Source: Pseudovirgaria hyperparasitica (taxonomy: Eukaryota). Taken from it: a DNA stretch of 64,000 bases. Location: NCBI GenBank assembly GCA_010093815.1, contig ML996572.1. One strand, given 5' to 3'. Made by a program: the position numbers and the translations under genes. Below, in pieces: positions 26,983 through 30,023 of this stretch (positions within the stretch are counted from its first letter, which is position 1; each line of letters opens with the position of its first letter). The notes below the pieces were generated by a model that did not search any database, was not told the origin of the DNA, and worked only from the letters and a program-made list of their open reading frames with translations.

Positions 26983-28626
26983 GTATGCCCACTAAACTCT
27001 AGGACCAAGGGCTAATACTGGCAGCAGTCTTCAGCTACACGGTACACTTCTGTGTTGTGACGAAGCAGCTTGCTTCTTCTGTTGACGCTTGACGCTGCGA
27101 CAACATCATCATCGTCATCGTAGAGACACCTCACTCACACACACACACTCTCTCTAGTCCTTGAAAGCATACTGCTGGCCGGACTCCTCTCGCACGTGTC
27201 TCTGCCGTGGTGCTCGCAAGAACCTACCACGCCGTGCACGCCCTGATGCACAGAACCGCACTTCCGTCCCGTTGAGCGGCGGACTCCCGACTCGGAGGCT
27301 CTGGGAGCAGAGTTCGTGATGATTGATCGATGTCTCCGCTCTCCGCTACACCAGCGGTGATCCATAAGGAGAGAAATAGAAGCCTCCCTCGCTGTGGCGG
27401 ACCGCCGGTCCCCTCTTCTCATGATCCTAGTAAAGTCTCAGGGCAGAGCAAATCCTTCTATGTTGTAGATCTGGGAGGCTTGAAGCTTGTTCAATGATAA
27501 AGCGGACACCAGTCTTTTTGGGCATAGACGCCCAGTGCTTACCTACTCGAATTGTATTACGCATTGGTGCAGCACGCCTAAAGAGGCCCCATCGCTGTGA
27601 GGATCGACGCTGCTTACTCTTCTTTGGTCTGCTGCGCGCACACACGAAACAGCCTCATCGCAACAAGCATCTGCTGCCGGCACAGTGTATTTTCCTTCTT
27701 CGTGGTGGTATTAGTGCCCCTTCGGTGGTTGTGACACTACGCTCTGCGCGTTCCATTCAATACGATTCCATCTCCACGTCGCGCTTCGTCCACGGCTAAT
27801 TCTCCATGAAACCAAGCAACCGTCTCCGCTCCGCATCAACTCATAGGCTAGCCGAGGCGTGGACCGGCTACAGTGTTGTAATCCTTATCGAACTAGCTAC
27901 AGCATCAGTCGATCTGTTTGATGTTGATTGGTCATGACCGCCAATCTGTAGCTTACCGTCGTCTTTTGCAACATCTCATCCCTCGTTCCTAGTCTCTGTT
28001 GCTCATCTGCTCAGGCCCTTTTTTTTCTGGTATACGAAACCAGGTTCTTAGTCTGGGTGTGTAGTGTATGCCTGCTTTCACGTACCAATAGGCTACAGAG
28101 AAAATTCTGCTATGTCTCACCGCATGTCTAGCCTTGCTCTGCGAACAGGAGCTCCCTGTCACTTTCTGATTTTCTGAAGGACACGCGACTAATGTATTGC
28201 GCGGCATACGACGGTGTTTTTACATGCTGGGTAGCTCGGCCTAGTATTGCCTCTTCACCACCTAGAAGCGTTCTGTTTCCTTTTGTGACTTCCGTACGCT
28301 GGGGCGCCACGATATCTACAGACAAAGGATGCAATTCTGGTGCAGTGGTCATCCTCTAGAGCTTGTCACATATCCTTATCCTAGCCCGCGTCGCCGTTGC
28401 TTGATGATGCATGCAGGGTAAACGCCTCTCGTGTGCCTCTCATGTGGCAAGCAAACATTACGGATGGTCCCGTCTGATGTTTGGCATGAAAATCACGCGC
28501 TCGCTGGATCTCTTGTCGATCCTCACGCAATCCACGGAGGGGTAGTGGGGCACTTCCTGGTGAGTTGTCGCGACATATCATGGATGCTGTCACACGCCAA
28601 GTCTGCCGCATTGATATTGATATTGT

Positions 28627-29679
28627 TTACGAGCTGGCAGAACCAAGGTCTTCAGCAGCATCAGGGCGGTTCCAGCTTTCATTTTCGAGCTGCTCCACCA
28701 ATCGTGTGATTTCTTGAGCTCTGGCCGTGTACTTAGCACGGGCCGCTTCTTGAAGTTGAAACGTCTCTTTGAACTTCGCAAGCATGAATAGTGGTAGGGA
28801 GCACTTCTTGCCCACTCGATAGTCGTACATGACTATGTCCTCGACACACCGTGCTGCAGGTCGTTGGTGTCGCTCTGATAAGATTAGGACATCCAGAATG
28901 AACGCATCCATGCCTGCCTTAGGCTCGGAGTGTAGTTTGTGTAACACTGTCACGCGATCCGGAAACATCATAGGCTGCGAGACTCATCAGCTATATATAT
29001 ATCAGACATCTTCGCATATCTGGTGCAGCTCACGAATTTGTAGTCGGTCCGTATACTTCGCAGTATCATCCCTTCACCTTTTGGCGTGTCCAATTCACTC
29101 CATTGACTGCAATGCTCAACGTCTGCTTTGGCGAAATTCCGCGTCCATTGTACGCGACCGGACTCGGCCCAGCGATTGAACTTCACATTGTTGACATGTC
29201 CTGTCACACAAGATCAGCTCAAGGCACGAGAGGTGCAGCGAAGCTACAAACCCTGTGAGATATTAGCACTCTATGTGAGGCATATGACGGAGTCTTCCCA
29301 CCATAGAGTCCTGGTCACCCCAGAATATCTCATGCCTCCATAAGCCTCGTCTTCCCTTTTGTGTCAAGAAGCCTTCCCCTCCAGCTAGGAAGTCTCGCCA
29401 ATCTGTTGTTAATTCCTTCAAGATTGCTCCAGCGCGTAATGTCTGCGCTTCGTTTATCCCAAATGTTATGCAATAACCCAACCTTGCCTTCATGCTAGAT
29501 AGCCATCGTGGATCAGGCGTAGCTATAGCAGAGCTTGACCCAGAAGAAGTGGCCGAAGTCGAATACGTTCGATATTGCGCCAGATAGTTAGGCAATAGAA
29601 CATGCGTCAAACGAGCTGTGGTCGCTGTTCCGGGATGCGTGCACATGATGAAGGAGGCCATTGAACCTTTCGCCGCCAT
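28627..29679 (-). CDS. Hot-dog-fold (4HBT-like) thioesterase, probably mitochondrial
   Basis: Spliced product has WGDQDSM-G-HVNNVKFNRWAESGR..GMILRSIRTDYKF|PMMFPDRVTVLHKL..AARCVEDIVMYDY. The correct frame requires a 1-nt exon at 29252 (see findings). Confidence 0.85.
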
Positions 29680-30023
29680 AGCCTAGAGCAGTAATTCGAG
29701 CAAGCCAGTTTACGATAGTCTGAGTACCCCGAGTATATTGAGATATGGAAAATGTATCATAGAAAGAAGGACTGACAGCGTTGTAGACTTGGAGATGTGA
29801 GGTTCAATTTCAGTTTCCGCCCACGCGGTCGGCGGGTCGGCAGCTCTCTCCATGGACTGGGGAAACAATAGCTTTACGTCACTGGACTCGTCCATCAATT
29901 GGACTACCTACTTCAATTTCTTGTCATCGAACCCCTCACTTGATGAACTCTTACATTACCACAATTCTCTAGCACCTTTTCAAAAAGTAATCTTGAAGAC
30001 CAGTGTCTTTAGTCTAGCCTGGG

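Follow-up and report, generated by a model that had tools for sequence, protein, structure and literature searches.

A very probable one-base exon within the conserved motif of a putative hot-dog thioesterase gene of Pseudovirgaria hyperparasitica, and its counterparts at related fungal loci

The window analyzed here is a stretch of 64,000 nucleotides from contig ML996572.1 (assembly GCA_010093815.1) of Pseudovirgaria hyperparasitica, a Dothideomycete of the order Acrospermales. Positions 29679-28627 hold, on the minus strand, the four-part coding sequence of a thioesterase gene, and all features below lie on that strand. Coding exon 1 (29302..29679) starts with the ATG at 29679-29677 and ends with ...GAC TCT ATG, the last codon being at 29304-29302. 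It is followed by intron B (29253..29301), which is 49 nt long, in phase 0 and of the form GTGGGA...GCTAAT...CACAG, by the single base G at 29252, and by intron C (29201..29251), which is 51 nt long, in phase 1 and of the form GTTTGT...GCTGAT...GACAG. Coding exon 3 (29034..29200) reads GA CAT GTC AAC AAT ... TAC AAA TTC; the sequence after intron C continues GACATGTC (also written GACATGTCAACAAT). An ordinary third intron of 59 nt with GT..AG ends (28975..29033) and the last coding exon, which includes the stop codon (28627..28974), complete the gene.

Two complete GT..AG introns, 29301-29253 and 29251-29201, thus flank G29252 and lie exactly one base apart. Both have a donor, a CTRAY-like element 10-13 nt from the end and a YAG acceptor. 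The putative branch-site elements are GCTAAT in intron B (29262..29267, 10 nt before the 3′ end) and GCTGAT in intron C (29213..29218, 13 nt before the 3′ end). The element of intron B aligns with a column block, G-C-T-x-A, that is invariant in 10/10 aligned sequences, and introns at the same position as intron B are found in relatives. Most relatives have GTA-type donors, which are stronger than GTGGGA and GTTTGT of the window. When G29252 is included it forms the first base of the Gly codon GGA in DSM-G-HVNN, and a frame of 297 codons is open and reads ...WGDQDSMGHVNNVKF...; when all 101 bases are removed, the translation is DSMDMSTM and then a stop, i.e., a stop after 8 codons. A sequence-only reading of the locus had given these coordinates, motifs and intron lengths of 49 and 51 nt, and all were found to be right when the sequence was re-read. 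Its proposals that the retained G yields the thioesterase motif D-S-M-G-H-V-N-N, and that removal of the span as one intron yields a frameshift with an immediate stop, are likewise borne out.

A protein search with exon 1 has a sole match, EJ05DRAFT_500644 [Pseudovirgaria hyperparasitica] (P0001), a hypothetical protein of 291 aa. The exons of the window, when joined with a 118-nt intron at 29318-29201, reproduce P0001 letter for letter. The window gene is therefore that of Pseudovirgaria hyperparasitica or of an identical strain. The donor of this public gene model, GTGACC (29313..29318, minus strand), is not used in the observed transcripts, and the model loses six residues of the motif (GDQDSM or DQDSMG). 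In a Pfam comparison with PF13279 (4HBT_2), P0001 matches profile positions 9-122 with an E value of 1e-17, and the intact ortholog P0004 matches positions 1-122 with an E value of 3.8e-25. With the G included, the window reads WGDQDSMGHVNN, which displays the N-terminal D-x-x-G-H-V-N-N motif at fixed spacing. A profile built from 63 intact orthologs matches the solved bacterial thioesterases 5byu and 3qy3, which have the WGDxDxxGHVNN motif in common with the window gene and show the same motif spacing, WGDMDALGHVNN and WGDMDSYGHVNN. The Asp of the DxxGHVNN motif is presumably catalytic in the hot-dog thioesterase class. Judged by these similarities, the gene is a predicted nuclear hot-dog-fold 4HBT_2 thioesterase with putative acyl-CoA thioesterase activity.

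The junction was surveyed in the best 120 homologous database proteins (P0001-P0120). The motif is intact in 65 of these best homologs; in 5 of the 120 the spacing is kept but the Gly is replaced by Ser, Ala or Gln. The intronless loci L058 and L020 show that the Ser and Gln forms, at least, are genuine variants. The other 50 of the 120 best homologs are disrupted exactly at the DSM/G/HVNN junction, with deletions like that of P0001, read-through peptides or lost exons; they include models from Parastagonospora, Pyrenophora, Alternaria, Diplodia and Aspergillus ochraceoroseus. Aureobasidium database proteins (P0043, P0055, P0098, P0099) are also garbled at the junction.

Leotiomycetes-like sequences (L020, L030-32, L038, L047, L056, L058 and L076, and proteins P0046, P0060, P0069, P0076 and P0105) have Gln, Asn, Lys, Ser or Ala at the position of the motif Gly, and therefore the Gly is not invariant in the family. 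The codon is GGN wherever the micro-exon exists. The motif of P0068 (Bathelium mastoideum) is DSM-G-(18 residues)-G-HVNN, with an insert that starts with N and ends with L; this protein, for which the protein sequence was used, may be an in-frame read-through of a 57-nt intron at the intron C position alone. In addition, the matches of many short database proteins are limited to query residues ~40-125 or begin at ~119-121 or ~176-178. Such proteins resemble ORFs called exon by exon on genomic fungal contigs, and they point to the junction and the third intron as boundaries that are shared widely.

Transcript data were available as assembled contigs of two runs, X1 and X2, which come from one sample of one study and were mapped onto positions 28400-29900. 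The kind of run is not on record and the runs are not labelled RNA; that they are cDNA is suggested by the precise loss of both intron regions. X1 and X2 contain 0.78 of the sampled words. The contigs show 0 differences from the exons, with mean word depths of 42.9 and 107.4. Coding exons 1 and 3 and the last coding exon are all covered, the cover of exon 1 extending to 29776 (X1) and 29769 (X2), and exactly 59 bases are skipped at the third intron. Introns B and C are both missing.

Between 29200 and 29301 the contigs show a skip of exactly 100 bases rather than 101; its placement is ambiguous by one base, and no letters lie in between. Thus the mRNA keeps one G (ATG-G-GACATG) and reads DSMGHVNN. 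A comparison of inclusion and skipping in cDNA had been proposed in the sequence-only reading, and only the inclusion form occurs in the X1 and X2 contigs; the 101-base skip, in which the G is omitted, was not seen in these contigs, a kind of data that drops rare forms, intermediates, lariats and minor isoforms. From the contigs alone, the retained G could be any of 29301, 29252 and 29201.

Two further features of the contigs bear on the surroundings of the gene. The X1 transcript contig is 2678 nt long and runs 1460 nt beyond 28400, past the thioesterase stop at 28627, and may also cover the downstream neighbour gene. A separate X2 contig begins at 29797, ~20-28 nt from the ends of the thioesterase contigs (29776 in X1, 29769 in X2). 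Transcription units around the thioesterase gene are tightly packed or overlapping.

The position of the retained base can be narrowed from the sequence of the span. A removed block of 100 bases can be placed at 29300-29201 (TG..AG) or at 29301-29202 (GT..CA). A single canonical intron or a nested stwintron pair would need a G at both ends of the block; because the block starts with T (29300) or ends with A (29202), both are excluded, which agrees with the earlier statement that the arrangement is not a stwintron. The 101-base span has only two AGNGT words, AGGGT, with 29252 as the exon base, and AGAGT, with 29270 as the exon base. The second would place an A in the mRNA, and the transcript contigs are without it. 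Thus G29252 as a 1-nt exon is the only GT-AG route to the observed mRNA. For an estimate of chance, the interior of each span was shuffled 20,000 times, and an AGGGT that left both halves at least 30 nt long was scored. Such a word occurs in 2.8% of the shuffles of the window span; for each of 20 related spans the figure lies within 1.3-15%.

Metagenome contigs were scanned with the ortholog alignment, which gave 80 loci in 59 clusters at ≥95% aa identity, and the DNA between the Met codon and the His codon was read in each of the 80 loci. No intron is present in 28 loci (19 clusters), and 2 loci (2 clusters) have only an upstream intron, A, placed after WGEM. A single phase-0 intron B followed by the whole codon is found in 19 loci (16 clusters). 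The layout of the window, i.e., intron B, a 1-nt exon and intron C, is found in 22 loci (18 clusters), and intron B, a 2-nt exon (AG/GG/GT...AG/N) and intron C in 7 loci (3 clusters). Two truncated loci, L053 and L073, are unclassifiable; L053 accounts for 1 cluster and L073 clusters with the 1-nt-exon locus L074.

Wherever the last intron ends two bases before the His codon, an internal AG/G/GT that gives GGN is present, in 22/22 loci (L040 counted). An alignment of orthologs for a conserved intron-G-intron layout had been suggested as a check, and the layout is conserved in all 22 loci that need one base. Taken with the skip of 100 rather than 101 bases and the sole GT-AG path, this upholds the earlier claim of a required 1-nt exon. 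In 21 loci, L040 being cut by a contig end, the halves could be measured and are 51-104 nt and 48-76 nt long. The intron sequences themselves have diverged, and only 5 span pairs are >70% identical. The outer ends in the 1-nt-exon loci are canonical, with GTRNGN at the 5′ end and YAG or AAG at the 3′ end, which speaks for canonical use of both ends and for an internal origin of the retained base. A simple CTRAY-type search finds no branch motif near the intron B 3′ end in 5 of the 22 spans examined. A GGCTRAG block, in the branch-site region of intron B, is present in 10/10 aligned spans. The intron-B-only loci share this 3′ part, GGCTRAG..AAG, and read from AAG directly into GGN CAT. Thus intron C behaves as a clean presence/absence block. 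The AG/G/GT micro-exon appears to be a feature widely shared among related fungi and not peculiar to one genome.

Intron A is also found in 15 of the 22 1-nt-exon loci (L019, L027, L028, L029, L036, L037, L039, L044, L045, L060, L063, L067, L071, L077 and L078). There, a 9-nt exon GAY AGC ATG (DSM) is followed by intron B, the 1-nt exon and intron C. L019 is an example of two micro-exons, in the ~420 bases before its position 2015. It should be noted that intron A is 58-84 nt long and lies directly after WGEM, which leaves two consecutive micro-exons, of 9 nt and 1 nt.

In two loci, L043 and L061, intron A is kept and B and C are absent, and their nearest relatives have all three. The two adjacent introns seem to have been lost jointly, and the 1-nt exon boundary with them. 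That these loci are partly spliced transcripts was considered and rejected, with no uninterrupted third-intron junction matched and no poly(A)-like end in them. A Logan-derived ORF with an intact motif, P0078, lies on a contig of 1036 nt and shares 93-94% identity with L077 and L078, both of which have the 1-nt exon; as a sign of spliced RNA in a second lineage it is only suggestive.

The loci were placed by their nearest named protein (56-99% identity) and by a gene tree of 138 rows, built with FastTree after the junction columns had been taken out, and the class labels given here to metagenome contigs derive from these nearest proteins and the gene tree. Dothideomycetes-like rows with the 1-nt state are the Pleosporales-like L019, L027/63 and L071, then L052, L054, L055 and the window itself, as well as L077/78 near Lepidopterella (Mytilinidiales) and L021 and L074 near Aulographum. 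The 1-nt state is also found in L034, L044/45, L037/60 and L040, which fall in a 98%-supported clade with Aspergillus, Polytolypa, Rhinocladiella (a Eurotiomycete) and Exophiala, and in L028/29 and L067, which fall in a 99%-supported clade with Pleopsidium (a Lecanoromycete) at 71-83% identity. In Leotiomycetes-like rows, intron B is the sole intron or there is none. The AG/G/GT micro-exon thus would seem to be inherited rather than local, and to occur in many Pezizomycotina lineages.

Only Aureobasidium-like rows, with 79-99% identity across top hits, show the 2-nt state, and they are nested among 1-nt rows. These are loci L022-L026, L079 and L080, with the form AAG/GG/GTGAGT ... CAG/C (in L022 at 1760-1878), and their 2-nt exon looks like the result of a one-base slide of intron C.

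The reading favoured here is that two separate GT-AG introns of the U2 type split the Gly codon of WGDQDSM-G-HVNN and leave G29252 between them as a constitutive 1-nt exon, and this is very probably correct. The contigs would be equally well explained, in either placement, by one non-canonical intron of 100 nt (TG..AG at 29300-29201 or GT..CA at 29301-29202) removed in a single reaction, the internal AGGGT being irrelevant. Its length is no objection, since single introns of 52-142 nt occur at this site in relatives and intron length is thus not decisive. However, such an intron needs splice dinucleotides that, to our knowledge, U2 spliceosomes essentially do not use. It also leaves unexplained the AG/G/GT in each of the 22 loci needing a base, for which the chance is 1.3-15% per locus, as well as the separate donor of each half and the presence or absence of intron C as a block. 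We regard a single 100-nt intron as very unlikely. It is extremely unlikely that the public gene model is right, with its 118-nt GT-AG intron at 29318-29201 and a protein without the six motif residues. That model is canonical and in frame, reproduces the deposited 291-aa protein exactly and could exist as a minor isoform invisible to contigs, but as the main product it is contradicted by the contigs of both runs, which are uninterrupted from 29301 to 29769/29776 and contain the 18 bases that the model removes. It also forfeits the first 8 positions of the Pfam profile and the Asp motif, which is conserved in 65 of the 120 best homologs and in the solved structures.

An artefact, be it an indel in the assembly, a pseudogene in decay or a processed DNA copy mistaken for a transcript, could be suspected from the unrecorded kind of the X1 and X2 runs. 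Against this stand the exons without a difference from the contigs, the 297-codon frame that is open with the G, and the recurrence of the layout in 18 independent sequence clusters from other assemblies, while the depths, 42.9 and 107.4, are in keeping with cDNA, as is the exact absence of both intron regions; an artefact is accordingly hardly credible. A further idea, already raised in the sequence-only reading, is compatible with the 1-nt exon and would be added to it: skipping of the G could be a regulated off-switch that sends a frameshifted mRNA to nonsense-mediated decay. The stop 8 codons after a skipped G would suit such a switch, and the long conservation of a fragile layout invites a functional explanation. 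However only the inclusion form is in the contigs, though contigs drop rare forms, and introns have been lost cleanly, with no intron in 28 loci, only A in 2 and only B in 19. That many lineages have cleanly lost intron C, or every intron, speaks for a dispensable layout, and regulation of this kind is quite unlikely.

If G29252 is a 1-nt exon, introns B and C would each be removed in a splicing reaction of their own, i.e., in two spliceosome cycles, and the joining of exon 1, the G and exon 3 would give GGA (Gly) and restore the frame. The acceptor AG of intron B would form positions -3 and -2 of the intron C donor, so that the two sites overlap in AG/G/GT. With this overlap both sites are probably not occupied at once and removal is probably stepwise; either order of removal would leave usable signals, and the ordered sequential splicing proposed in the sequence-only reading would be one form of such removal. 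Such stepwise removal would be formally like recursive splicing, with a 1-nt instead of a 0-nt exon. The ratchet points of recursive splicing, in Drosophila and vertebrates, have juxtaposed 3′ and 5′ splice sites, a 0-nt exon and very long introns. The thioesterase junction resembles them in the acceptor directly before a donor and in the presumed stepwise removal, but one base is kept and the introns are ~50 nt long.

The most far-reaching account of the locus would make the 1-nt exon ancient, predating the split of Dothideomycetes, Eurotiomycetes and Lecanoromycetes, often with an upstream 9-nt exon, and kept for a frameshift/NMD off-switch through obligatory stepwise AG/G/GT splicing, with the 2-nt exon of Aureobasidium as a one-base slide of intron C. 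Taken as a whole this account is unlikely.

One-base exons have already been published. Closest is a 1-nt exon with the word AGGGT in the CYP621A P450 genes of Fusarium, presented in the available part of the report as the first fungal case (Nelson & Syed 2026, PMC12940212). As that part describes them, these genes share with the thioesterase a fungal nuclear gene, the AG/G/GT, a G in the Gly codon of a conserved motif, a frame that breaks when the base is omitted and automated models that are wrong, and RNA reads support inclusion in Fusarium (PMC12940212). The G is the middle base of the codon in Fusarium CYP621A and the first base in the thioesterase, and the scope differs, CYP621A being a P450 described in one genus whereas the hot-dog thioesterase layout is found in clades that group with three classes (PMC12940212). 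For CYP621A its authors propose, in the same part, that a cryptic AGGGT was co-opted after a 1-base loss (PMC12940212). For intron C of the thioesterase, a precise gain or loss would fit the loci better than a CYP621A-style co-option of a cryptic site.

Other systems are less similar, as far as the accessible portions of the papers describe them. Arabidopsis APC11 has a constitutive single-nucleotide exon between two spliceosomal introns, and that gene too is mis-annotated (Guo & Liu 2015, PMC4674806); it is a plant gene whose exon was validated with reporter constructs, whereas the thioesterase exon is known from sequence and transcript contigs. A long-read annotation of Coprinopsis cinerea lists 13 exons of 1 nt and 57 of 2 nt (PMC12230235). 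Thus fungal spliceosomes handle 1-nt and 2-nt exons, and there too omission creates premature stops; however Coprinopsis is a basidiomycete and the result is a genome-wide tally, whereas the thioesterase is a single gene (PMC12230235). Stwintrons and a 1-nt intron shift have been described in Pezizomycotina genes (Fekete et al. 2017, PMC5587772). These likewise involve two consecutive splicing reactions at one spot, and orthologs with discordant introns 1 nt apart may be compared with the 1-nt and 2-nt exon states described here. In a stwintron, however, the internal intron interrupts a splice signal of the external one with nothing exonic between, whereas the thioesterase has one exonic base and two independent introns (PMC5587772). 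A literature search, with subscription journals and bioRxiv supplements outside its scope, found no description of the thioesterase micro-exon. What the thioesterase adds to the published cases is its apparent age, the tandem 9-nt and 1-nt exons, the 1-nt and 2-nt states and the scale of mis-annotation.

For annotation, the deposited Pseudovirgaria hyperparasitica protein is without six motif residues and 50 of the 120 best homologs are garbled at the junction; function predictions and alignments for the family are therefore corrupted across many fungal genomes. Ordinary read alignment misses the 1-nt exon, which in many relatives follows a 9-nt exon, and the locus offers a hard, RNA-supported test for gene finders and spliced aligners. 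The loci also form a natural series of states at one codon, i.e., none; B; B, 1-nt exon and C; B, 2-nt exon and C; and A, 9-nt exon, B, 1-nt exon and C. This series is usable for the study of intron gain, precise loss and one-base sliding. The finding would demonstrate that an exon of one base can persist through divergence at the level of classes, and it bears on the minimal exon that the fungal spliceosome can handle.
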